64,000 nucleotides of DNA from a virus (taxonomy: Duplodnaviria > Caudoviricetes). Under the pieces are notes generated by a model. That model saw nothing but the letters and a program-made list of their open reading frames with translations. It made no database searches and was not told the origin of the DNA. Shown one piece after another: positions 1 through 50,676 of the stretch (position 1 is the first letter of the stretch; every line of letters starts with the position of its first letter). The translations under genes were made by a program, and so were the position numbers. Location of the stretch: positions 3,412-67,411 of the IMG/VR virus record IMGVR_UViG_3300020037_003123; one strand, 5' to 3'.

Positions 1-271
1 GAATACCACCTTGAATTACTAATCCATCATAACCTTCGTCATTAGGGAATACTGTAATATTAGGTTCATCTGTAAGAGAGCCTACAATTAGATCTTTAAT
101 AAAGGCTTTTGAAACCCTTTTAGGAGTATCAATAGTTTGTTTATCTGCTGTATAATCAAATCCTAAGGCTTTTAAAAATTGCCCATAAGCCTCAGCAGCT
201 TTAACAATCATTTGTTCTGTTTCTTCTTTAGTACGAGGTAAATTACCGTTCGATTTTTTTAATAATTCCAT
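1..271 (-). CDS. folE: GTP cyclohydrolase I, N-terminal part (runs off the window start; absent from the ORF track)
   Basis: Manual translation from ATG at 271: MELLKKSNGNLPRTKEETEQMIVKAAEAYGQFLKALGFDYTADKQTIDTPKRVSKAFIKDLIVGSLTDEPNITVFPNDEGYDGLVIQGGI. Has the FolE-type L..LG.D...TPKRV..F and F.N..YD..V motifs and sits beside queE/C/D. Confidence 0.85.
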   Translation of the reverse strand, partial: MELLKKSNGNLPRTKEETEQMIVKAAEAYGQFLKALGFDYTADKQTIDTPKRVSKAFIKDLIVGSLTDEPNITVFPNDEGYDGLVIQGGI

Positions 272-272
272 T

Positions 273-740
273 TTATTTTAAATTAAAGTTTTCATTTTTT
301 AATAATATTAAATCACTAAGGTCTTTTGGTCTACCATATGATACTTTTGCTTGTATTATTTCTAATACTGAATTAACTTCATAATAATTATGACTCCATT
401 TGTATTTGAGACCACCACCATTAACAGGATTATTAGCAAGTAGAATATTGAGATATAAACCTTCTTTTTTGAATTTATAATTAACAGTACTAAAGTATTT
501 AGTATCGTCTACTCTAAAATTAGACATTGCTTTTATATAGTCTTTCTGTTTATCTGTTGGGTTGTTTATTATAACATCTAAATCATCCGATTTACGAGAA
601 AATTGTAACCCATGTAATTTTAAAATTAATGAACCACCTAATTTTATATTTGATGAACCATCTGGTGTCGTAAATGATAATTCTTTTAAATCATCAAGTA
701 TTTTATGAAATACTTCTAAATATTTGTCTAATTCTTGCAT
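273..740 (-). CDS. Putative nucleotidyltransferase-fold protein
   Basis: LGGSLILKLHG...SDDLDVII resembles the hG[GS]-x-DxD signature of the Pol-beta nucleotidyltransferase superfamily. Confidence 0.55.
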   Translation of the reverse strand: MQELDKYLEVFHKILDDLKELSFTTPDGSSNIKLGGSLILKLHGLQFSRKSDDLDVIINNPTDKQKDYIKAMSNFRVDDTKYFSTVNYKFKKEGLYLNILLANNPVNGGGLKYKWSHNYYEVNSVLEIIQAKVSYGRPKDLSDLILLKNENFNLK

Positions 741-816
741 ATTATTTATTTTATTTCTTGAAAAATTGCATAACCATTATTATCACACCCAATTATTATA
801 TATTGTTTCATAATAA

Positions 817-1707
817 TTATACATTTACCGTTTTATCCCAAGCCGCTATGTGTAGCCGTGTAAGACCGCGGAAGCGGTATTTCTTGGCTAATTCAAGACA
901 GAATTGAGTACGCTCTTCAAAATCAGCAGCATCATCTAATCCTGGCATACACACTACATTTTTAAGAGGTATATTGAATGGTACTATAAAATCACGGAAT
1001 ATTTCCTTAACATCATCTTCCGTTGAAATAACAAATTTAAATTGGTAATTTGAATGTTCCATTATACGCTCTATAGCTCCTGGAATTATACGTTGTTTTG
1101 ATGGAAGACCTGAGTTAGATAGCTTTGGTGAGCAGTTGATTTGGTCTATTATTTTAAATAAATCATCTTCAATTACTACGGTACCGTTTGTTTCAATTTC
1201 ATTATAGTTATGTCTTACAATCAAATCATTCTCCGGTAATCTCCAAGCATATTCTTTGCCAGGAAGTGTTGTTGAAGGATCTACTTGTAACAACCAATAT
1301 TTATGAAAATTAACAATAGCTTCCTGATGTCCTTTAATTGTAGGTTCACCACCAGTCCAAATGATATGGATAGTACCATTTTTAATATCATCGTAGATAC
1401 CTTGTTCTTTCCATCTGTCAATTAGATACTGAAACTCCTTATCTTCACCTCTCCATAACCATTGAGATGTACTGTCACAAGTCCAAGTTGCTTTACCTTC
1501 AGCATGTAAATCACCAACAAATATTTCACCATCTTCTAATGATTTTTCTTTCATTAGCTTATTAGCGAATAAACGGGACATACCGCAAGTTAAGTTACAA
1601 GTACCTAAACGTACGAAGTAAGATGGAACACCAGATGAAATACCTTCACCTTGAATACTGTAGAAATCACTACTGATAAGTAGTTTATTTGGATCTATTT
1701 TGCTCAT
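817..1707 (-). CDS. queE: 7-carboxy-7-deazaguanine synthase (radical SAM)
   Basis: FYSIQGEG...FVRLGTCNLTC...CDS, WTGGEP, EIETNGT, CSPKLSNSG and C-terminal RLHIAAW; que cluster context. Confidence 0.92.
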   Translation of the reverse strand: MSKIDPNKLLISSDFYSIQGEGISSGVPSYFVRLGTCNLTCGMSRLFANKLMKEKSLEDGEIFVGDLHAEGKATWTCDSTSQWLWRGEDKEFQYLIDRWKEQGIYDDIKNGTIHIIWTGGEPTIKGHQEAIVNFHKYWLLQVDPSTTLPGKEYAWRLPENDLIVRHNYNEIETNGTVVIEDDLFKIIDQINCSPKLSNSGLPSKQRIIPGAIERIMEHSNYQFKFVISTEDDVKEIFRDFIVPFNIPLKNVVCMPGLDDAADFEERTQFCLELAKKYRFRGLTRLHIAAWDKTVNV

Positions 1708-1721
1708 ATAATTGTTTTACT

Positions 1722-1760
1722 AAAAATAAAAAAATACCTCTGCCTTTTCAAGCAGAGGTA
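1722..1760 (-). terminator. Rho-independent terminator after the HTH gene
   Basis: 9-bp inverted repeat TACCTCTGC/GCAGAGGTA (1735-1760) followed on the minus strand by a long U tract. Confidence 0.75.
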
Positions 1761-1774
1761 CTAGGGTTTTGTGA

Positions 1775-2011
1775 TTAAGCAAACGCTAATTCACTGTTTT
1801 TAACTCTACGGCGAGTTAGGTTGTACATTGCGTTAGCAATAGTTTGATTGATACGACGCTCACCATTAAGGATGTAATAGATGAAACGTGATGTATAACC
1901 AGTTTCTTCGGCAAGACGTGTAACGTCACCTTTTCTTGAACGTGCTTTGTAGAAAGCTAATTTTGCTGTGCGATTTAAATAGTTCGCTCTAACGTTTGTT
2001 TGAAAACTCAT
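1775..2011 (-). CDS. Small basic helix-turn-helix DNA-binding protein
   Basis: VTRLAEETGYTSRFIYYILNGERR matches a Cro/XRE-type HTH pattern; Arg/Lys-rich. Confidence 0.6.
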   Translation of the reverse strand: MSFQTNVRANYLNRTAKLAFYKARSRKGDVTRLAEETGYTSRFIYYILNGERRINQTIANAMYNLTRRRVKNSELAFA

Positions 2012-2053
2012 AACTTAAAAATGTTTGGTTAATAATATAATAATTTAAATTTT

Positions 2054-2497
2054 TTATTTTGCCTTTTCTAGGTATTCTTCTATTGTAGTTTCTAAATAAT
2101 GAAATTCTCTATGACAGTTTGAACATAATGGAATGCACTTTTCTAATTCTGCTTTAGTTACATTTACTCCTCTTATTGATGTACCTATACTAAATTTTTT
2201 TTCAGTAGGATCTAAATGATGAGCATCTATAACATAGTGTCTTTTATCTCCACACTTAATACAGCCTTGAGACTTCCATTCATCAATAATGTTTTTGCGT
2301 TTTAATGAATGAGCTTTTGATTGTTGTCTCCATTTATCTTTATTATTCTGTCTGTAGTTTTCAGTTCTAATTGCAGTACATTGTTTACATACACTTAGAT
2401 ATCTATTTCTACTTTTATCAAATGGAAATTGTTCTGTTTGTTTTTCTTGTTTACAATCTATACATGTTTTCATAATAATATGTTTTAGGGTATTCAC
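2054..2497 (-). CDS. Free-standing HNH endonuclease with zinc fingers
   Basis: CxxC pairs, DAHHLDP and CIPLCSNCHREFH. Start is GTG at 2497 or ATG at 2473. Confidence 0.8.
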   Translation of the reverse strand: MNTLKHIIMKTCIDCKQEKQTEQFPFDKSRNRYLSVCKQCTAIRTENYRQNNKDKWRQQSKAHSLKRKNIIDEWKSQGCIKCGDKRHYVIDAHHLDPTEKKFSIGTSIRGVNVTKAELEKCIPLCSNCHREFHYLETTIEEYLEKAK

Positions 2498-2532
2498 GAT
2501 AATAAATATTATGAATACCCCAAAGACATTAA

Positions 2533-3375
2533 TTATTTTCCATGAGCTGCTAATACTTTTTTAACATGATCTGTTACTACATCCCACGATACTATACCAC
2601 CTTCATCTTCATATGTTACTGGATCTTTGCGTCCTAAATTAAGGAATGCTTCTATACGCTCAACAGATGCTGCTGATTTATAATCACTATTTCCTGATGG
2701 ATATGGTTTATAACTTGTGTTAGTGCGCTTATATACTTCATCAAAGTCAAGACCTAACTTTTCACAACATTGTAATCCATCCTGTAATATTTCTAATTTA
2801 GTTACCTCTAAATAAGGAGTATAGAAATTGACTAATTCGCTATTCCAATTACCTAACTTAAATGCTTCCATATCAGCATCTCTAAATTCTTGTCTACAAT
2901 CAGGATAAACACTGAAATCTCCAGCATGAATACCTAATGCAATATCTACTCTTTGTCCTACAGAGCAATCGTCACCAATGTTTTTAGTTGCTATTGATAA
3001 TGCAACTGCTTGAATCAATGAACTGAATATTTTGTTACGATTAGGTACTACAGTTGCTTTCATGTTTTCTTCAGCGTAGTGACCTTCAGGAACATCAGCA
3101 CCACCTGTTACAAGTGCTGAATTTAATAGTTCAACTAATCCTTCTAGTTTAATTACTTGATGTTTAACTCTTGGAAATGGTGGTAAATACAATTCAATGT
3201 TGTGTTGAGCATTAATATACTCAACTAATGCTTGTGCTCTTTCTAATTCAACACTATGTTTTTGTCCGTAATCGAACGATAGTGCTGTTACCTCGTAACC
3301 ATTTGCTAATAGGTGGAGTAATAGTGTACTTGAATCCATTCCACCGGATAGACTTAAAACTGCTTGTTTTTTCAT
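2533..3375 (-). CDS. queC: 7-cyano-7-deazaguanine (preQ0) synthase
   Basis: SLSGGMDSST PP-loop, FDYGQKH, VVPNRN, HAGD..YPDCR.EF. Confidence 0.95.
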   Translation of the reverse strand: MKKQAVLSLSGGMDSSTLLLHLLANGYEVTALSFDYGQKHSVELERAQALVEYINAQHNIELYLPPFPRVKHQVIKLEGLVELLNSALVTGGADVPEGHYAEENMKATVVPNRNKIFSSLIQAVALSIATKNIGDDCSVGQRVDIALGIHAGDFSVYPDCRQEFRDADMEAFKLGNWNSELVNFYTPYLEVTKLEILQDGLQCCEKLGLDFDEVYKRTNTSYKPYPSGNSDYKSAASVERIEAFLNLGRKDPVTYEDEGGIVSWDVVTDHVKKVLAAHGK

Positions 3376-3393
3376 TTGTTTAAATTAATTAAA

Positions 3394-3437
3394 TAAGGAG
3401 CGTATTGTTTTGTTGATCGATTAGCCCCATAACCGAT
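3394..3437 (-). promoter_or_regulatory. Candidate H-type RNA pseudoknot in the queC leader
   Basis: Sense AUCGG-UUAUGGGGCUAA-UCGAU-CAACAAAACAAUAC-GCUCCUUA. The loop pairs with the 3' segment at 7 of 8 positions; the element ends 18 nt before the queC ATG. Confidence 0.45.
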
Positions 3438-3458
3438 TTTATTAAAATGGTAATTCAT

Positions 3459-3695
3459 CTAAATCAATATTTCTGAATTCTTTCTCATCTCATCAGCATC
3501 TGGTGTTTTAAAATACCATTTTAGAAATGATTCCGGATACAACATTATCTCTCCTGTGTATTTTGCATTCGATACATGTCTTGTTTTAAATCCTACATTT
3601 AATTCAGCAGCGCGAGTTGCTACTTGTTTTCCTAATTCACTACCTGCAGCGCGTTTGAGGTAGTCGTACAATGATAAAAATTTTTCTTCTAACAT
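3459..3695 (-). CDS. Hypothetical protein; C-terminus altered by a 5-nt duplication
   Basis: Intact ORF in the operon. An alternative frame gives DEKEFRNIDLDELPF-stop at 3442 if one GATGA copy is removed. Confidence 0.65.
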   Translation of the reverse strand: MLEEKFLSLYDYLKRAAGSELGKQVATRAAELNVGFKTRHVSNAKYTGEIMLYPESFLKWYFKTPDADEMRKNSEILI

Positions 3696-3701
3696 AACTC
3701 T

Positions 3702-4487
3702 TTATTTTAAAAATTGTTTAAACTTATTTACGTTAAATATAATATCTTCTTTTTGCTCACTCAAATCTTTTTCAAAATAAAATTCAAGTTTTTCTTTTGG
3801 TTTCCAATTAATACCATTATCCCCATAACGAACACATTCAGCACCTACTAAAATTGGATTTGATGTATCACCTGATTTAATAAAGGTCCAATCTGCATGT
3901 ACCATATATTCTTGTGGTAATGAAGCACCTAAAATATGATGATAAACTGTTTTATCTAAAATACCTGTTTGTAATAGGTGTCTAATGAACTTCATTCTAC
4001 CATACATTTGAGCATTAAGTAAACTTAATTCAGGGTACATATCTTGATATGCTATACTTGAATGATTAAATGCGATGTGTTTATAACCTAAAATTAATAA
4101 ATTGTTATATGTTGAAGTAAGTTCTTCTAATGTTTTACCTTGACATACAGCCATTAATTCAACACCTTCAGGTAGATTTGGTTTATGAACGTTCATCCAA
4201 TGTTTAGCATTTCTAATAGTAGCGGCTGAATCGTTCCATTCATCAGGAACGATGAATACATTTGGTTTAAATGCATATATTTTTTCTAATAGATCTTCAG
4301 TTGTATGAGTTACACCCTCAAACAATCCATTATCCATAATAATAAAACGACCATCTTTTCTAGCTTTTAGAAAATATATTTCATATTGCATGTATTTGTC
4401 GATTAAATGCGGAAGCATATAATCATAATCATTCCACTCGTATCCGTGGTGCATTAATGATAAAGGTAATTCGTGACTTATTTTCAT
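3702..4487 (-). CDS. Divergent tRNA-guanine transglycosylase/DpdA-like TIM-barrel protein
   Basis: IMDNGLFE, VPDEW, HILGAS and SGDTSNP resemble TGT-fold motifs (DSG.F, PD, H.LG, S.DSS); lies between queD and queC. Start moved to ATG 4487, just after the queD stop. Confidence 0.65.
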   Translation of the reverse strand: MKISHELPLSLMHHGYEWNDYDYMLPHLIDKYMQYEIYFLKARKDGRFIIMDNGLFEGVTHTTEDLLEKIYAFKPNVFIVPDEWNDSAATIRNAKHWMNVHKPNLPEGVELMAVCQGKTLEELTSTYNNLLILGYKHIAFNHSSIAYQDMYPELSLLNAQMYGRMKFIRHLLQTGILDKTVYHHILGASLPQEYMVHADWTFIKSGDTSNPILVGAECVRYGDNGINWKPKEKLEFYFEKDLSEQKEDIIFNVNKFKQFLK

Positions 4488-4488
4488 A

Positions 4489-4965
4489 TTATTCTTCGTA
4501 TATTGCTGAATTTTTACCATGTTCAAAGCATTCTACTTTGATTACTTTACAACGACCTGCATCTGTTTTAGATAATACATCGTTAAACTTAGCATAAACT
4601 AATTTAGCTAGATTTTCACAACCCATTTTCTCCATTACACGTAAATGTAATAGATTCATTTGTTCCATAGACATGAATATATCTAAATATGGATCGTCTT
4701 TTTCAATTAGTGTAGTATGGTCAAACATATAATCCATCCAATCTTTCAAACCATTACCTTTTGGTGCTGATTTAAAACCACCGAAATCAACAATCCAATT
4801 CATATCGTCTAATTGATTTTCTTCTAATGGTTCAGTAGATGCAAACCATACTTTAAAATAAATTCCATAACCGTGAAGCAACTGACAGTGTGAATGTTGT
4901 GCTCTCCATTGACGAATAGCTACTGAGTAGTTGTCAAATGTTTTTGTTGAAATATAACGTCCCAT
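4489..4965 (-). CDS. queD: 6-carboxy-5,6,7,8-tetrahydropterin synthase
   Basis: HSHCQLLHGY, WIVDFG, FDH, CENLA and C-terminal VECFEH. Confidence 0.92.
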   Translation of the reverse strand: MGRYISTKTFDNYSVAIRQWRAQHSHCQLLHGYGIYFKVWFASTEPLEENQLDDMNWIVDFGGFKSAPKGNGLKDWMDYMFDHTTLIEKDDPYLDIFMSMEQMNLLHLRVMEKMGCENLAKLVYAKFNDVLSKTDAGRCKVIKVECFEHGKNSAIYEE

Positions 4966-4968
4966 TTT

Positions 4969-5172
4969 TTATTGTTTTTTTATTTCTTTAGTACTAAATA
5001 ATAAATAAGTTAATACTTGTAATCCAATTGATTGCCAAAATGTAATTGTTGGTAAATCAAATATTGTAGGCATAAGCCAATTCCACAGGAACATTACAGA
5101 ATATCCTGCAAACATAATAACTAATCCTATTACGGATATAACTAAAATAATATTATCCAGCATTTGTTTCAT
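4969..5172 (-). CDS. Small membrane protein
   Basis: Two hydrophobic segments; WNWLMP.IF.LP.I.FWQ pattern. Confidence 0.6.
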   Translation of the reverse strand: MKQMLDNIILVISVIGLVIMFAGYSVMFLWNWLMPTIFDLPTITFWQSIGLQVLTYLLFSTKEIKKQ

Positions 5173-5350
5173 CTTCTATATCTGTTTTAATTTGATCTAA
5201 TTGTAATTTAATTTCGGTCATTGCTAAATCACCAGCATCCATCATTTTGGATAATTTTTCAACTAACTGAGTTAATTGCTCAGGAGTTAAACTAGCAGCA
5301 TCTATTGATTTTAGATTTTCTGCTTCTTGTTGTAACTGTTCTAAATTCAT
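5153..5350 (-). CDS. Hypothetical acidic helical protein
   Basis: ORF overlapping both neighbours in the operon. Confidence 0.55.
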   Translation of the reverse strand: MNLEQLQQEAENLKSIDAASLTPEQLTQLVEKLSKMMDAGDLAMTEIKLQLDQIKTDIEDETNAG

Positions 5351-5541
5351 AACTTAAATTTAATAAATTCCTCTGCCAAAACCAAATTTCCTTTAGTATG
5401 CTTAGGAGAGTAAGGACAATTTTTACATCCACTCCCACAACATTTACCCTGCATGACAAGGGATAGAGCAGTAAATACTACCCTATCTCCTTCCATGTAG
5501 TAATGTATTCCTTCTTCTAATTTAGACGATCTCACAAGCAC
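5347..5541 (-). CDS. Small Cys-rich protein (DUF5522-like)
   Basis: YYME..VVFT...G.CCGSGCKNCPY motif. Confidence 0.6.
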   Translation of the reverse strand: MLVRSSKLEEGIHYYMEGDRVVFTALSLVMQGKCCGSGCKNCPYSPKHTKGNLVLAEEFIKFKL

Positions 5542-7372
5542 CTCCTGCGCACGCTGCTTGATCTGCTAAAGCCGTTTCATCGCTAAATTCAATAACTTTA
5601 GATAAATCAATGTTATGTAAATGTGTTACCATTTCATCAAATTGTTCTTTGGTAATGTCTTCAAATGGAGCTTGAGTGTATGTTCCTCCGAAGTAAGGTA
5701 GTACTGATAAGCCATTGAATGTTTCTTTATTTTCCCACATCCATTTACCTACTTCTTCCCATTCACCTTCTTTAATTGATACCGTTGCTGATACATTGTT
5801 TGTATTTGCTCCTTTACGGTGTCCTTTTTTAACCCATTTTGTGTTAAATAATTTAACACGCTCAAGCATATCCATTACATTTTCAGTTCTTACTATTGAG
5901 CCTTCAGGTGCTGATTGTGGTACTGAAATAACTGCTTGAATTGTTGGTTTGAAGAAGTCATCTTCAACTAATTCTGGATAGTTAATTGCTAAATGAGAAT
6001 ATATTGCTTCGTTTTTACCTACTCTGATACGTCTGATATAGTAGTCATTATGCCAAGCGTGAATACCACTTGATGTTCCTAATACTAATGAACTAGTACC
6101 TGATGGTTTTACAGTAGTAACACGAGCTGCTTTATTAATACCAATTAATTCAGCAACACGAGCATTTTCTTCTTTAGCTATTTCAGCTGCTTCTTTTAAA
6201 TTCATTTTTAATACAGCACCAGAACCTATACCTGTCATTCCAACGCCAAGTAAAGCATCTTTCTCAGTTGTTTTACGCCAAATATCTCTTAGGTAGTGAA
6301 AGTCAGTATATGCTGCTTGTAATGTACCTATGAATGCACCTACTTTAACTCGTTCGTTTAAATCTTCTTGTGATTCAACATTTGATACGTTTACTTCACA
6401 TAAGTTACAGAACTGGTATGGGCGAAGTGCTATTTCGCAACATGGGTTTGTTCCCCAATCTTTATCATTACTGAAGTAGATACCAGGTTCTCCTGAATTA
6501 CTCAATTCAATTTTCTTCCATAATTTAAAGAATTCTTCTTCATCTATTTTGTGACGTAATACTACAGCACTGTTGTTTGAACGTCCACGCTGTGGATTTT
6601 CTTCCCACCAATTTCCAAATTTACATGTTAGCATTGCTTCATCATCTAAATCAAATAATGAAATTAATGCTGCTCTTCTAATACCACCACTTAATACTGC
6701 ATCCGCAATATGACAAGCCATATCGTGTGCTTCTAGTGATGTTAATCTATCACCACTTTTCTTTCTATCAAGTATTTTTTGTAATTGGAATAAACATTCT
6801 TTTAATGGTTCGGGACCTGGTGCTTTACCACCTACAGTAATTAATTGAGCGCCTTTCGGTCTGATATCTCTAAAATCAAATAATGGTAATGAACCACCTG
6901 TAAAATATGCTTTGCATAGCATTCTAACTGCATCAGCCCATCCTTCAATACTGTCACCAATTAAATAACGTTTATGTTTTGTTGGTACAGTTATTTCAGG
7001 AAGTTTTTCGATGTGATGTGTTTGTACACTATAACCTACTCCTGTTCCTGATAGTAATAGGAACATAATTTCACTAAATGCTCTCCAATCATCAATTGGT
7101 AAGAATGAACAGTTAAAGATACGAGTGTTATTCAATTCAATTGGTTTACCAGCGAATTGTAATGAACGCATTGATGGTAATACTTTTTTAGCATAAACTA
7201 ATTTATAAGCATTTTCTATTTCATCATGCAATTGAGGAAATTTTGCTTGGTGCATTTCTTTGTTTCGGGTAACTAATTCTTCCCATGTTTCTCGTCTCTT
7301 TTTCTCAGGAACATACTTTGCATACTTCATATACACTGTAATGTCACTGAGGATGTTCTGTTCTACGTTCAT
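5522..7372 (-). CDS. nrdJ: Class II (adenosylcobalamin-dependent) ribonucleotide reductase, monomeric RTPR type
   Basis: LPSMRSLQF, FNCSF, GGIRRAA, NPCCE, TVKPSGT and C-terminal ACAGGACE; no beta-subunit gene nearby. Confidence 0.92.
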   Translation of the reverse strand: MNVEQNILSDITVYMKYAKYVPEKKRRETWEELVTRNKEMHQAKFPQLHDEIENAYKLVYAKKVLPSMRSLQFAGKPIELNNTRIFNCSFLPIDDWRAFSEIMFLLLSGTGVGYSVQTHHIEKLPEITVPTKHKRYLIGDSIEGWADAVRMLCKAYFTGGSLPLFDFRDIRPKGAQLITVGGKAPGPEPLKECLFQLQKILDRKKSGDRLTSLEAHDMACHIADAVLSGGIRRAALISLFDLDDEAMLTCKFGNWWEENPQRGRSNNSAVVLRHKIDEEEFFKLWKKIELSNSGEPGIYFSNDKDWGTNPCCEIALRPYQFCNLCEVNVSNVESQEDLNERVKVGAFIGTLQAAYTDFHYLRDIWRKTTEKDALLGVGMTGIGSGAVLKMNLKEAAEIAKEENARVAELIGINKAARVTTVKPSGTSSLVLGTSSGIHAWHNDYYIRRIRVGKNEAIYSHLAINYPELVEDDFFKPTIQAVISVPQSAPEGSIVRTENVMDMLERVKLFNTKWVKKGHRKGANTNNVSATVSIKEGEWEEVGKWMWENKETFNGLSVLPYFGGTYTQAPFEDITKEQFDEMVTHLHNIDLSKVIEFSDETALADQAACAGGACEIV

Positions 7373-7406
7373 TTTTTGTTGTTCTTTAAAATAGTTTTTT
7401 AATATA

Positions 7407-7667
7407 TTAAAATCTTACATCAGAACCAGGAAATACAATAATACCTGGGTCTTTTTCTCCTTGAGAGTTTACAATTTGTTCTTGTGATTTAACTTTAATT
7501 TTTACTCCTTGTATACTCATCTCTCCACCCTGTTGAAGTGTCTTTTTAAATAGTGTTTCTTGACCTACAGTCCATGTAGCACTGAAGTCTATTATTTCTT
7601 GTTTTGAGGCTAGTTTATCGTTAAAGAAGACATCAATCCCCTTTCTTATTGATTGTGGTTTTAGCAT
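7407..7667 (-). CDS. Hypothetical protein
   Basis: Clean ORF between thioredoxin and nrdJ. Confidence 0.6.
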   Translation of the reverse strand: MLKPQSIRKGIDVFFNDKLASKQEIIDFSATWTVGQETLFKKTLQQGGEMSIQGVKIKVKSQEQIVNSQGEKDPGIIVFPGSDVRF

Positions 7668-7668
7668 T

Positions 7669-7929
7669 TTATAGATATTGTTTAATAATACTGTTTACAA
7701 CTGCTTTTGGTTTTACTCCACTAAAACGATGTACTTGATGTCCATCTTTTTCAAATATAATAGTGGGTACTGATTGTACACCTGATTGTATAGCTAAATC
7801 TTTATTATCATCAACGTCTATATCTACAAAACGTACATTTGGATTTTCTTTTTTAACTTCTTCGAATACAGGGACCATTTGGCGACATGGCATACACCAC
7901 GTTGCCGAAAACTTCTTAACGGTTAACAT
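7669..7929 (-). CDS. Thioredoxin
   Basis: FSATWCMPC...VQSVPT. True start is ATG 7929, since the track's longer ORF overlaps the helicase and spans the promoter motif. Confidence 0.9.
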   Translation of the reverse strand: MLTVKKFSATWCMPCRQMVPVFEEVKKENPNVRFVDIDVDDNKDLAIQSGVQSVPTIIFEKDGHQVHRFSGVKPKAVVNSIIKQYL

Positions 7930-7966
7930 AAAGTGATTATTTTTGTGTTTATAAATATAATGTAAT

Positions 7967-9355
7967 CTACGTTCCCTCCTCATATTTTGCAAACTTACTG
8001 CGAAGAATATACTTATCTTCTTCACCAATGTCTGAGAAAGGGTTTGTCTGTTTATTGTTACCTTTTGCTTTGGTTTCGAATTCTTCATCATCCAAAGGTT
8101 GATTGAATATATCAATAAAACCATTAGCTGTGTTTATTCTTGAACCAAATGTTAATCCATCAGCACCATATCTATTTTTAATAAAGTGCCAGTTACCAGT
8201 TCCATTAACCTTATCTTTACGACCACGTGCTAAGGATATAATTATATCTCCAATCATAATTTTATCATATGATCCTGCTGCGTTTTCAGCTTGTAATATA
8301 TCTTTATCAGCACCTGTTCTATTTGCTTGTGAAGGCGATACAATCGGTATGCATAATTGTTTAGCTAATCCTTTAGCTTCAGTATATACATCATCAATTT
8401 CATCCTTACGTTCTTTTCTACCTTTGGTACGTAGTAAATCTAAATAGTCAATTATGATTAGATCTGGTTTAAATTCATTTTGATGTTCTAGTTGTTGTAA
8501 ATGGGCTTCAATTGTGTCTAGTGATGCACGTTTTGGTGCATATTCTTTAATTACAATTTTACCTTTAACCTTACTGATTGCTTCTTCAACTTCGCTACGA
8601 TGATCGTTTAATTTATCAACATCAACACCTGAGAATACTGCGTCATAACGTTTACCAACGTATCCTTCAGATAATTCTAGTGTATAGTGTACTACGTTAT
8701 AACCTAATGCTGCTGCATAAGCGCCCATTGCAATTACTCCCCATGACTTACCACCACCTGGATTACCGAATACTAATACTAAATCACCTTTACCATAACC
8801 ACCTTGTGTTAATTCGTTAAACGTTTTCCAAGGGAATGGTATAGCGTTTCTATCGTCATCTCTATAACGTGCTTCAACATCTGCTTCGTATAAGTGACCT
8901 ATATTCTTTTCTTCACCCGCTTTCATCGCCATATTAATCAATGAACGAATACCATCATAATCACCTAAGTTGAGTAGATCAACTGATGTCATAATGGCTT
9001 TCTTCATTTGTTGGTTCTTACAAAAGCTACTAAATTCTTCTTCTACCCATTCTAAATCTGATACATCAGACATTTTATACGCTTCACGTAGTGCATCTGT
9101 AAGTGAAATACGTAATACTTCATTATCAATCTTTTTAATTTCGATTGATAGTGTTTCTATAGTTGGATAAGTATGGTATTGGCCGAAATATTTTATAATA
9201 TAATCGATAACCCATTTATGTGCTTGTGATTCAAAATACTCACTGTCAAGTGAATCAGCAATGTTTAATAAGAAATCTCGTTGTGTAAGTAGTGCGCCTA
9301 ACACTTTAACCTGGAATGCGTTTCCGTATTGATTGAGGCGAGAGAGAGTAGTCAT
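7967..9355 (-). CDS. Replicative DnaB-family helicase (T4 gp41-like)
   Basis: Walker A GNPGGGKS, YTLELSE, IIIDYLDL, SQANR, IKNRYG. Confidence 0.9.
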   Translation of the reverse strand: MTTLSRLNQYGNAFQVKVLGALLTQRDFLLNIADSLDSEYFESQAHKWVIDYIIKYFGQYHTYPTIETLSIEIKKIDNEVLRISLTDALREAYKMSDVSDLEWVEEEFSSFCKNQQMKKAIMTSVDLLNLGDYDGIRSLINMAMKAGEEKNIGHLYEADVEARYRDDDRNAIPFPWKTFNELTQGGYGKGDLVLVFGNPGGGKSWGVIAMGAYAAALGYNVVHYTLELSEGYVGKRYDAVFSGVDVDKLNDHRSEVEEAISKVKGKIVIKEYAPKRASLDTIEAHLQQLEHQNEFKPDLIIIDYLDLLRTKGRKERKDEIDDVYTEAKGLAKQLCIPIVSPSQANRTGADKDILQAENAAGSYDKIMIGDIIISLARGRKDKVNGTGNWHFIKNRYGADGLTFGSRINTANGFIDIFNQPLDDEEFETKAKGNNKQTNPFSDIGEEDKYILRSKFAKYEEGT

Positions 9356-9380: not shown

Positions 9381-10070
9381 TTAACTTTCTTTATATTTCC
9401 AAATAAATCCACCTGCTGTTTTTGCTAATCCTATTAATACATTAGGTATACCTTTTATATTAGTTATATTTTTAGCTTCAGTTATAGATTTATATTCTTT
9501 TATTATATTATTATTTTTATCTAATTGTTGTATAGGTTTAGATTTAACTTCTATACATTTATGTCTATTGTTTTTAATATTCAGACACCAATTTAAATTA
9601 TGTTTTTTGCCTGTCCTAGCTAAAGACAAATTTTGTTTATGTTCATTAGATTTAGGTTTACCATAATTGCCGTGTTCATCTCCACTTTTAATATCCCGTT
9701 TTGATCCTACTCTAGCTTGTCCACTCAATTTACCCCACTCAGGATCCCATATGCGTTTCTTTAATCCATGTTTTATATTTTGTTTTGTTTCTTCTGATAA
9801 TCCTGAGTTGCCAAACGGTTTATTTGTTTTATTGTAGAAGTTAGGATTATTTTCTACATCGTAATAATTTAACCAATATGTTTCTCGTTCTATAAGATGA
9901 TCAATACTGTTACAGTGCTCTATTATTTCTTTTTTAAAGTTATGTTTGCCGTATTCTTTAATAGCTATTTTCAAATCAGCACCTGATCCAATATAATTGG
10001 GGTTATTGTTTTTGTCTTTACCTATATACTTTATACCAGTAATAAGGTTTGTAGTTTGATATATTATCAT
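9381..10070 (-). CDS. Free-standing GIY-YIG homing endonuclease (Seg-like, NUMOD-type C-terminus)
   Basis: IIYQTTNLITGIKYIG...YIGSG...RETYW...FYN; C-terminal KPIQQLD...YKSITEA...TAGGFIWKY. Confidence 0.85.
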   Translation of the reverse strand: MIIYQTTNLITGIKYIGKDKNNNPNYIGSGADLKIAIKEYGKHNFKKEIIEHCNSIDHLIERETYWLNYYDVENNPNFYNKTNKPFGNSGLSEETKQNIKHGLKKRIWDPEWGKLSGQARVGSKRDIKSGDEHGNYGKPKSNEHKQNLSLARTGKKHNLNWCLNIKNNRHKCIEVKSKPIQQLDKNNNIIKEYKSITEAKNITNIKGIPNVLIGLAKTAGGFIWKYKES

Positions 10071-13619: not shown

Positions 13620-14441
13620 TTAAATAAATAAATCGTCGAATTTGTCTGCGTTAGACGTTTTTGGTTTTACATCCAGCTTATACGCTTCAGCTGGTTTGTT
13701 CATTTCCGTTAGGAAATCATCTTCCTCTTCGTCTTCGTCTTTAGAAACGATTGGTGCTTCAGTATCTTCTTCGCTATCTGGGTTCAACCACTTATCTAAT
13801 AAATCTTTCAATTCATCAAATGTGTATTGTTTGTTAATAGCAAAGATGTCTGGTTGTTCGTTCAATGCTTTTTCTACTAAAGCAGCATCTTCAGAAATTG
13901 GTGTTGTTTTAGGTTTAACACGAATGTTACATTTAACACCTTTTCTTCCAGCAACAACATCTTCTACTGCTTCGATTGTGAAGTCACGTCCATCAGTGAT
14001 GTCTGTGTAATCACCATAATCTTCATCAGCAGCGATACCTAACAATTGCTCGTAAATTAATTTACCAAATTCCCATAGACGAGCGCCTTGCTCTTCTTCA
14101 CCACGTACCAATACTGGAACGAAGTAACGTAATTTCGGTTCAATTTTTTTAGCTAATTGCCAATCTTCTTTGTCAGATGATTTGCGAAGGTTTTTTGCAA
14201 ATTCAACGATAGGATCTTTCTCGTTCCAGTTAGTCAACGCCAAAATTGGTCCCTTGGAGAAACCATAGTGGAAGTAAACTTCACGGAATGGATTTGATTT
14301 GTCGAATTTTGAGGGGAGGATACGAACTTGGTATTTACCAGGTTTCGGTTTGAAAAAGATCTTACTGTAATCTACTTTTTCACGTTTTTGTCCTTTGTTT
14401 TGAGAAGCGGACAGCTTCTGTTTGATGACGCTTAAGTCCAT
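13620..14441 (-). CDS. Single-stranded DNA-binding protein (T4 gp32-like)
   Basis: Aromatic OB-type core (VRILP...PF.E.YFHY, RYF.PVLVR, DITDGRDF) and acidic tail ending KFDDLFI; next to the recombinase. Confidence 0.8.
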   Translation of the reverse strand: MDLSVIKQKLSASQNKGQKREKVDYSKIFFKPKPGKYQVRILPSKFDKSNPFREVYFHYGFSKGPILALTNWNEKDPIVEFAKNLRKSSDKEDWQLAKKIEPKLRYFVPVLVRGEEEQGARLWEFGKLIYEQLLGIAADEDYGDYTDITDGRDFTIEAVEDVVAGRKGVKCNIRVKPKTTPISEDAALVEKALNEQPDIFAINKQYTFDELKDLLDKWLNPDSEEDTEAPIVSKDEDEEEDDFLTEMNKPAEAYKLDVKPKTSNADKFDDLFI

Positions 14442-50154: not shown

Positions 50155-50676
50155 TTAGATTAGTTGTGAGGTAATAGTGTTTATGCGTTCTTCTGTTGAA
50201 CCTTTAATTTCAATAAGTTTCTTAGGTGGATGTGCTTTTAATAATTCACGTATAATTTCATCAATCTCTGTACGATAATCAGCATTAGTTTCACGTACAC
50301 CATTATTTTCTATATCAACACCTTCAGGTGATACATAAATAACAACATCATATTCATTACGTAAATCCAACATTAAATCGAAAAAATGACGTTTTTCAAA
50401 TTTACTAATTGATTTAGCGCTGAGTGTAAATGCTATTACATCATATATTGTTCTATCAGTGATAATATTTGGTTTCATTAACTCTAAAGCACGTTCAGCA
50501 GCGAACACTATTTGACCTTTCAATGTTGAATCAGTATTTAATGCTATACCTTGATCGCGTAGATATTTACTACGTTCAGTTGCTATTTCATATCCTTTGA
50601 ATTGTTCTAACTCTTTAAGAGCGTTTACTAGTGTCGTTTTTCCTACCGACACGGTTCCTGTTAGTCCTATTTTCAT
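50155..50676 (-). CDS. P-loop kinase/ATPase (AAA_28 / NadR-like, nucleotide kinase fold)
   Basis: TGTVSVGKTT, ITDRTIYD, YD.VIY.SP. Confidence 0.8.
   Translation of the reverse strand: MKIGLTGTVSVGKTTLVNALKELEQFKGYEIATERSKYLRDQGIALNTDSTLKGQIVFAAERALELMKPNIITDRTIYDVIAFTLSAKSISKFEKRHFFDLMLDLRNEYDVVIYVSPEGVDIENNGVRETNADYRTEIDEIIRELLKAHPPKKLIEIKGSTEERINTITSQLI

Follow-up and report, generated by a model that had tools for sequence, protein, structure and literature searches.

A minimal DpdA3-family transglycosylase and a candidate partner protein encoded in the deazaguanine gene cluster of an uncultured immuto-like phage

What kind of base-exchange enzyme is encoded at positions 3702 to 4487 of a 64,000-nucleotide (nt) stretch of viral DNA (Duplodnaviria, Caudoviricetes; positions 3,412 to 67,411 of IMG/VR record IMGVR_UViG_3300020037_003123; the whole stretch is referred to below as the window), and does it act on phage DNA or on free nucleotides? 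The first-pass annotation had placed here a 261-amino-acid (aa) gene with the motifs DNG and DTS and with neither a CxCxxC zinc motif nor a PUA domain, and this description held. The open reading frame (ORF; protein P0001) lies on the minus strand, with an ATG at 4487, a stop codon at 3704-3702 and 261 codons in its translation, and the plus-strand frame over 3702-4487 is closed by many stops. The translation contains D52-N53-G54 and D207-T208-S209; C115 and C218 are its only cysteines, and CxCxxC is absent. The protein had no match in Pfam (E ≤ 10), NCBIfam or the PDB sequences, and thus neither a PUA domain nor a match to PF01702, the family of bacterial tRNA-guanine transglycosylases (TGT) and their archaeal counterpart ArcTGT. 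Its sole profile match was PHROG 19058 (function unknown; E, 1.3e-29), and a PDB profile search returned only DpdA, at a nonsignificant E value of 0.23.

Homologues numbered 1236 at E ≤ 1e-3 among 90% clusters, with 1351 representatives of 50% clusters. An alignment of the query and 119 representatives of 50% clusters (120 sequences, the family alignment used throughout) contained ten invariant columns: D52, E57, D82, R164, H184, L186, G187, D207, P211 and K229. The number of homologues and representatives, together with these invariant columns, indicates that the ORF is not a chance one. The reading frame can be extended upstream to a TTG at 4526; the ATG at 4487, which is 1 nt from the stop codon of the upstream queD gene, was taken as the start because the 120 closest homologues, with few exceptions, span 259 to 264 aa at 100% query coverage (84 are exactly 261 aa) and the alignment consensus begins with MKISHE.

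By sequence comparison the protein belongs to DpdA3, a family defined by CGPG_00065 of phage phiST, the homologues in Campylobacter phages (CP220 gp056) and gp206 of phage immuto (Hutinet et al. 2023; PMC10516641). When cultured phages were searched with tblastn, the closest matches (E, 1e-26 to 6e-32) were a protein of Flavobacterium phage immuto annotated as "DNA guanine transglycosylase" (33% identity) and one from the Campylobacter CP220 group that is annotated as hypothetical (35%). A hidden Markov model (HMM) built from the family alignment scored immuto at 358 bits, CP220 at 275 bits and phiST at 98.5 bits, and gave no significant match to the DpdA1 of phage 9g (gp03; E, 0.039; 2.6 bits) or to Escherichia coli Tgt. 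In a maximum likelihood tree of 126 sequences, with the root placed on the long branch of BSP7_057, phiST and MA9V-3 were basal, and CP220, immuto and the query fell inside a clade of 123 rows (SH-aLRT, 92); the query's own clade comprised 19 representatives (SH-aLRT, 98). A six-frame search of the contig with PF01702 found nothing, with 14 of 14 controls positive, and tblastn with E. coli Tgt against phages recovered no DpdA. The DpdA4 family PF20314 (DUF6610) did not match the window protein at E ≤ 10; one family member (P0224) had a faint match to it (E, 0.037). The annotation had likened the protein to the DpdA3 type of Bacteroidota phages, and the HMM scores to the founding members, the nesting in the tree and the proximity to immuto all favor that assignment.

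The same annotation had regarded the sequence changes as atypical and as possible marks of a new subgroup, which did not hold. The family consensus reads LDN[S/G]xFE and DTSNP, phiST itself has DNG, and CxCxxC occurs in 0 of the 120 aligned sequences. Because the supposedly atypical features are the norm of the family, the protein is a typical DpdA3 rather than the first of a new subgroup. It has the size and motifs of the immuto DpdA3, with 33% identity over 99% of its length. Homology to CP220 gp056 and phiST CGPG_00065 is also full length and extends to the lack of a zinc motif and to the motifs LDN[SG] and D[TS][SC]; however, identity is 24 to 35%, the products of those phages are 7-amido-7-deazaguanine (ADG) and 7-deazaguanine, and their DpdA3 genes are adjoined by a kinase gene. 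The window protein thus adds to a family that is already recognized though little studied, and the interest of the locus lies in a question of mechanism and in a candidate partner protein.

In order to obtain insight into the fold, the protein was modeled with AlphaFold2 from the 120-sequence alignment (mean pLDDT, the predicted local distance difference test score, 97.9). The strands of the model alternate with helices. In the Foldseek ranking the DNA 7-cyano-7-deazaguanine (preQ0) insertase DpdA (7ui4) came first (E, 7e-7), followed by dozens of tRNA-guanine transglycosylases; Cap10 (9ntn_A) was also among the matches (E, 7e-6). VIA-align superpositions spanning model residues 1 to 261 gave a Z score of 17.7 against ArcTGT (1iq8; 227 residues aligned; root mean square deviation, 3.0) and of 17.5 against the TGT of Z. 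mobilis (232 residues; 3.2). As modeled, the ORF product folds as a minimal TGT-type TIM barrel that lacks the zinc subdomain, and the TIM barrel with TGT likeness that the annotation had read from the sequence, for which it had proposed structure prediction as a check, was recovered with DpdA and TGT as top matches. With bacterial TGT and ArcTGT the protein shares this fold and probably the double-displacement chemistry; it differs in its 12 to 14% identity and in lacking the Pfam match, the N-terminal lid, the zinc subdomain and PUA. With the bacterial DpdA (bDpdA) of S. Montevideo (7UI4) and the DpdA1 of 9g it shares the TIM-barrel core, the three active-site aspartates and the hydrophobic sandwich, but it is about 150 residues shorter and has neither the CxCx2Cx22H site nor four insertions. 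bDpdA further differs in that it requires DpdB and modifies <0.1% of guanines. The isoelectric point was dropped as an indicator of DNA binding, as all of the proteins compared are acidic.

The bDpdA structure (PMC10164549) assigns D95 to acid/base catalysis, D130 and H181 to base recognition and D256 to the nucleophile, with F99 and L236 sandwiching the base and CxCx2Cx22H forming the zinc site. The D-x3-F spacing of D52 and F56 in the window protein matches that of D95 and F99, and L186 and D207 correspond to L236 and D256. An hhalign comparison with Tgt was weak (probability, 44% local and 17% global) and was used for the central and C-terminal motifs only; it placed D82 on D143 (FDEC), HHxLG on RYLMG and the D207-T-S-N-P motif on FDCVMP, which holds the nucleophile D264. 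The CDCytC segment of Tgt fell on a gap in DpdA3, and the position of the zinc histidine is occupied by N252. The predicted catalytic roles are thus acid/base for D52, base recognition for D82, nucleophile for D207 and base stacking for F56 and L186.

The gene that follows DpdA3 on the minus strand (3459 to 3695) encodes a small protein of 78 aa (P0275), a predicted partner subunit on the basis of adjacency, fusion and co-folding. It had no PHROG, Pfam or Foldseek match. A tblastn search located the small ORF in 61 of the first 80 loci, usually flanked by DpdA3 on one side and QueC on the other; phmmer located it in 92 of 134 related loci, in 80 of which it directly follows DpdA3. In two 50%-cluster representatives (P0127/P0277, 355 aa; P0157/P0278, 338 aa) the two proteins are fused, and the fused form is found in several contigs from independent sources, one of them 119.6 kb long. 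Co-folding of DpdA3 with the small protein gave an ipSAE score of 0.68, compared to 0.00 for the best control; of 80 solved complexes 58 attain the mark used for this score, and of 110 mismatched pairs 2 do so, counts that apply here only roughly because the co-folding drew on our own alignments. The co-folding runs had at least 88% of contacts in common, with a partner pLDDT of at least 78. The modeled interface is formed by helix 156-173, residues 190-199 and loop 217-231 of DpdA3, on its active-site face, and by residues 13-28 and 61-76 of the small protein. These models support, rather than show, binding of the small protein to DpdA3, of which it appears to be a previously undescribed partner.

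Some of the small proteins carry a C-terminal tail of a familiar kind. An xPF end preceded by acidic residues was found in 19 of the 92 copies (DDNLPF and QDNTLPF, of the D-x-LPF type), and the C-terminal tip of bacterial SSB, the protein that binds single-stranded DNA, is DDDIPF (PMC5872125). The resemblance is limited to the tail; unlike SSB, the small protein has no oligonucleotide-binding (OB) fold or other known fold, and most copies lack the xPF end. In near-identical contigs (L012 and L014), whose DpdA3 is 99 to 100% identical to that of the window, the intact ORF encodes 83 aa ending in DLDELPF (L012:1831-2082). Relative to these contigs the window has a 2-nt (AT) insertion within 3442-3470 (minus strand), which puts the DLDELPF codons at 3465-3442 out of frame; either variation between strains or faulty assembly may account for it. 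The only cultured phage with a homologue of the small protein is immuto (gp025), where it lies near QueC and 15 kb from DpdA3, so that a functional link to QueC is possible; CP220 and phiST have no homologue within 10 kb of DpdA3. Tethering of DpdA3 to the replication fork would suit a partner with such a tail, and a nucleotide-supply complex at the fork would suit it too. A gp32-like SSB encoded elsewhere in the window (13620 to 14441, minus strand) has the C terminus ...KFDDLFI, whose acidic and hydrophobic residues bear a loose resemblance to DLDELPF.

DpdA3 is surrounded by genes for making a 7-deazaguanine base, all on the minus strand. The products are a QueD-like 6-carboxy-tetrahydropterin synthase of the PTPS fold (4489 to 4965; PF01242, E of 5.5e-12; 46% identity to immuto QueD), a QueC of the 7-cyano-7-deazaguanine synthase family (2533 to 3375; PF06508, E of 1.4e-38; 59.5% identity to immuto QueC), a QueE-like radical S-adenosylmethionine (SAM) 7-carboxy-7-deazaguanine synthase (817 to 1707; phrog_2076, E of 1.4e-36; SIQGEG and CNLTC motifs) and FolE, GTP cyclohydrolase I (PF01227, E of 8.9e-49), the 5′ part of whose gene lies at 1 to 271 before it runs off the window (whole gene, L003:3047-3682, minus strand). 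The local order is class II ribonucleotide reductase (RNR), thioredoxin, QueD, DpdA3, the 78-aa ORF, QueC, an HNH endonuclease, QueE, a 155-aa ORF and FolE; outside the window follow a NUMOD3 endonuclease, a phosphoribosyltransferase (PRT) and a dCTP-deaminase (DCD)/dUTPase-like gene (L003:1251-1754, minus strand). The order RNR-QueD-DpdA3-small ORF-QueC-QueE-FolE(-PRT)-DCD recurs in the closer related IMG/VR loci, and the core of DpdA3, small ORF and QueC is kept in most of the others. The 155-aa ORF (273-740, minus strand), for which none of the first 80 related loci has a homologue and whose one match, to a nucleotidyltransferase (AbiEii), was faint, was probably inserted in this lineage specifically. 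In QueE, about 35 residues separate CNLTC from the next cysteine (TWTCDS), so that the usual CxxxCxxC radical-SAM motif is split.

The source of the window is an uncultured immuto-like myovirus of fresh water and wastewater. The contig (67.4 kb; IMG/VR; 41% complete; GC content, ∼31%; all genes on one strand) encodes a major head protein, portal, terminase and tail sheath. Immuto is the closest cultured relative, with 54% identity in its large terminase subunit TerL, to which the terminase of the contig is closest, 59.5% in QueC and 52% in PRT. At least six studies dated 2018 to 2025 contain near-identical DNA (>90% of sampled words of window positions 1-9000), in metagenomes of aquatic, river, wastewater and activated-sludge origin; megablast of 12 kb against phages gave no match. 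Contigs from RNA libraries cover parts of the DpdA3 gene, which is no proof of transcription, as DNA may be present in such libraries.

Immuto differs from the window phage in the base that is to be expected. Immuto, whose base is formyl-preQ1, encodes both QueF and the formyltransferase DpdN, whereas the window phage lacks the two. So do its complete relatives (168 to 173 kb), in which no QueF scores above threshold and which have no PF01702 TGT either. Because these relatives have no PF01702 gene, DpdA3 is the only candidate insertion enzyme, and because they lack QueF and the formyltransferase, the predicted base is preQ0, possibly ADG. In the QueC of both the window and immuto, the zinc motif SCY...CG...CxxC is replaced by TSYKP...SDYKSAASVE, and there are two insertions; in the alignment the four zinc cysteines are retained in the QueC of CC_R7 and BSP7. 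The zinc-less variant probably still makes preQ0, since immuto needs preQ0 for its QueF.

Taken together, these observations suggest that the ORF encodes the catalytic subunit of a DpdA3-type base-exchange enzyme. FolE, QueD, QueE and QueC would convert GTP to preQ0, or stop at ADG, and DpdA3 would swap guanine for that base by the double displacement of TGT and DpdA. In this reaction D207 would attack C1′ to form a covalent sugar-enzyme intermediate, D52 would serve as acid/base, D82 would read the edge of the base, and F56 and L186 would stack on it. We take phage DNA as the acceptor, and exchange would probably occur at the replication fork or close to it, with DpdA3 bound to the small partner, the intact form of which has the SSB-like D-x-LPF docking tail. 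The outcome would be a restriction-resistant genome substituted with dPreQ0 or dADG, possibly fully, as in immuto, CP220 and phiST, for which complete (100%) replacement of guanine has been described (PMC10516641, from which the statements on CP220 are taken at second hand). Exchange on DNA after replication is also the published model for DpdA3 (PMC10516641). For the window phage itself, we infer from these comparisons which chemistry, base and acceptor apply and how much of the guanine is replaced. The family and the chemistry, taken together, are highly probable; DNA as the acceptor is an evenly balanced call, and the full scheme, in which DpdA3 with its partner exchanges the base on phage DNA, is the one that we lean toward slightly.

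Several points weigh against this scheme. D52 was equated with the acid/base aspartate of TGT by motif spacing and superposition of the whole fold, not by residue-level alignment. The copy of the small ORF in the window has lost its SSB-like tail and ends in ...SEILI. DpdA3 does not have the additions with which TGT and bDpdA bind nucleic acids (N-terminal lid, zinc subdomain and insertions). Complete base replacement is otherwise known only from pre-replicative nucleotide pathways. The activity of DpdA3 has never been demonstrated, and attempts in E. coli failed (PMC10516641). Furthermore, genes of nucleotide metabolism accompany DpdA3 in cultured phages, as described next.

It is possible, though rather doubtful, that DpdA3 acts before replication, on deoxyguanosine that is still a free nucleotide or nucleoside; a dedicated kinase would then rephosphorylate the product of the exchange, and the phage polymerase would incorporate it as a modified dNTP. 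The substrate could, for example, be dGMP released from dGTP by a phage pyrophosphatase, in parallel to the dCTPase, dCMP hydroxymethylase and dNMP kinase of phage T4. In all six cultured lineages examined a P-loop kinase gene adjoins or lies near DpdA3. Three families unrelated to one another are represented: CP220, CC_R7 and immuto have phrog_2107, phiST and MA9V-3 have phrog_19196, and BSP7 has phrog_761. These kinases include CP220 gp055 (HD and AAA_33) and gp057, phiST CGPG_00066 and immuto gp203, which is two genes from DpdA3. Pyrophosphatases of nucleoside triphosphates (NTPs) are also found near DpdA3 (HD in CP220, MazG in phiST and a PRA-PH-like enzyme in immuto), and in the clade of the window the position after FolE/PRT is taken by the DCD/dUTPase-like gene in some relatives and by a MazG/PRA-PH-like pyrophosphatase in others, an alternation (loci L003, L048, L073, L074 and L080) that may be a non-orthologous replacement of an NTP pyrophosphatase. 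The window itself carries a phrog_2107 kinase (50155 to 50676, minus strand), annotated as "thymidylate kinase" but really of the AAA_28/NadR type, 46 kb from DpdA3. Its orthologues adjoin or lie near DpdA3 in CP220, CC_R7 and immuto; in cultured phages its homologues are confined to immuto, Streptomyces phages and Campylobacter phages, in the last of which they adjoin DpdA3, and membership of the kinase in the deazaguanine pathway is possible. The minimal barrel, the 100% replacement and the ADG nucleoside in infected cells cited in PMC10516641 are consistent with action on nucleotides as well. However, no enzyme of the TGT superfamily is known to act on a mononucleotide, and all DpdA proteins tested act on DNA (PMC10516641). 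When 134 related loci were searched with kinase, HD and MazG seeds, no kinase was found within 10 kb of DpdA3, and there were only 12 MazG-like matches. None of 11 long representatives was a fusion of DpdA3 with a kinase, and no fused forms of 502 aa or longer were found; a C-terminal extension of P0205 that looked like MazG by eye had no HMMER support and was dropped. Kinase and pyrophosphatase genes are, moreover, ordinary members of phage nucleotide-metabolism modules. PRT, which would be a further link to nucleotides (see below), is missing from some complete relatives. A free nucleotide as the acceptor is given less credence than DNA, and the fuller arrangement, in which DpdA3 and its tail-bearing partner sit in the nucleotide-supply and replication machinery, swap the base on a free deoxyguanosine nucleotide and rely on a dedicated kinase to feed the polymerase, is unlikely, if still to be reckoned with.

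A fold that equals those of TGT and ArcTGT would suit a phage enzyme that modifies host or phage tRNA rather than DNA, but DpdA3 lacks the PF01702 match, zinc site, PUA and tRNA-binding parts of such enzymes, there are no tRNA genes in the window, and the family was defined by phages with the base in DNA, not in tRNA (PMC10516641); this reading is very improbable. The barrel might instead be catalytically dead and retained as a scaffold or base-binding protein, in keeping with the lack of any activity measurement for the family (PMC10516641). The invariance of the three active-site aspartates and the stacking L186 in 120 diverse sequences, and the fact that complete genomes equipped to make the base from start to finish offer no candidate other than DpdA3 for its insertion, make this just as improbable. 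Least credible of all is an enzyme like Cap10, which attaches 7-deazaguanine to protein in the type IV cyclic-oligonucleotide-based antiphage signaling system (CBASS). The Foldseek match to 9ntn_A and the QueC-family gene close by are what such an enzyme would predict, but no cyclase or CBASS gene was found by Pfam or PHROGs in the 47 ORFs of the window and contig start that were scanned (the remaining window ORFs being unscanned), the full FolE/QueD/QueE/QueC pathway resides in a lytic-type myovirus, and the protein is a DpdA3 by its sequence.

The PRT gene (130 aa; L003:1941-2333, minus strand) follows FolE just outside the window. Immuto and phiST have homologues of it within their deazaguanine clusters, and several other phages have one near FolE or QueD. 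PRT may recycle the guanine that is released by the exchange. It is present in two of four complete relatives, and PRT as an obligatory route to nucleotides was rejected because the other two lack it.

Genes for homing endonucleases (HNH, GIY-YIG and NUMOD3) are scattered in the deazaguanine and replication modules (2054-2497, 9381-10070 and L003:2335-3015), and some metagenomic DpdA3 proteins (P0164 and P0207) are fused to homing endonucleases. In two others (P0211 and P0265) a formyltransferase domain is joined to DpdA3, as in a DpdA3-DpdN fusion. An Rfam search over 1-8000 at E ≤ 1, including the spacer before queC (3376-3458), returned nothing, giving no support to a preQ1 riboswitch upstream of queC.

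Of the DpdA types, DpdA3 alone has been linked to complete guanine replacement, and its base swap would allow phage DNA to escape restriction. The uncultured clade to which the window contributes one more protein is very large, with >1300 clusters at 50% identity, and is common in fresh water and wastewater. The candidate partner offers a concrete reason why DpdA3 alone may have failed in E. coli and provides a defined pair for co-expression. If exchange on the free nucleotide were true, DpdA3 would be the first enzyme of the TGT fold to act on a mononucleotide and would constitute the first pre-replicative route to a 7-deazaguanine genome, and the published post-replicative model would be overturned. 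Whether the base is exchanged at the level of DNA or of the nucleotide thus bears on how fully substituted phage genomes are built and on enzymatic routes to deazaguanine DNA.

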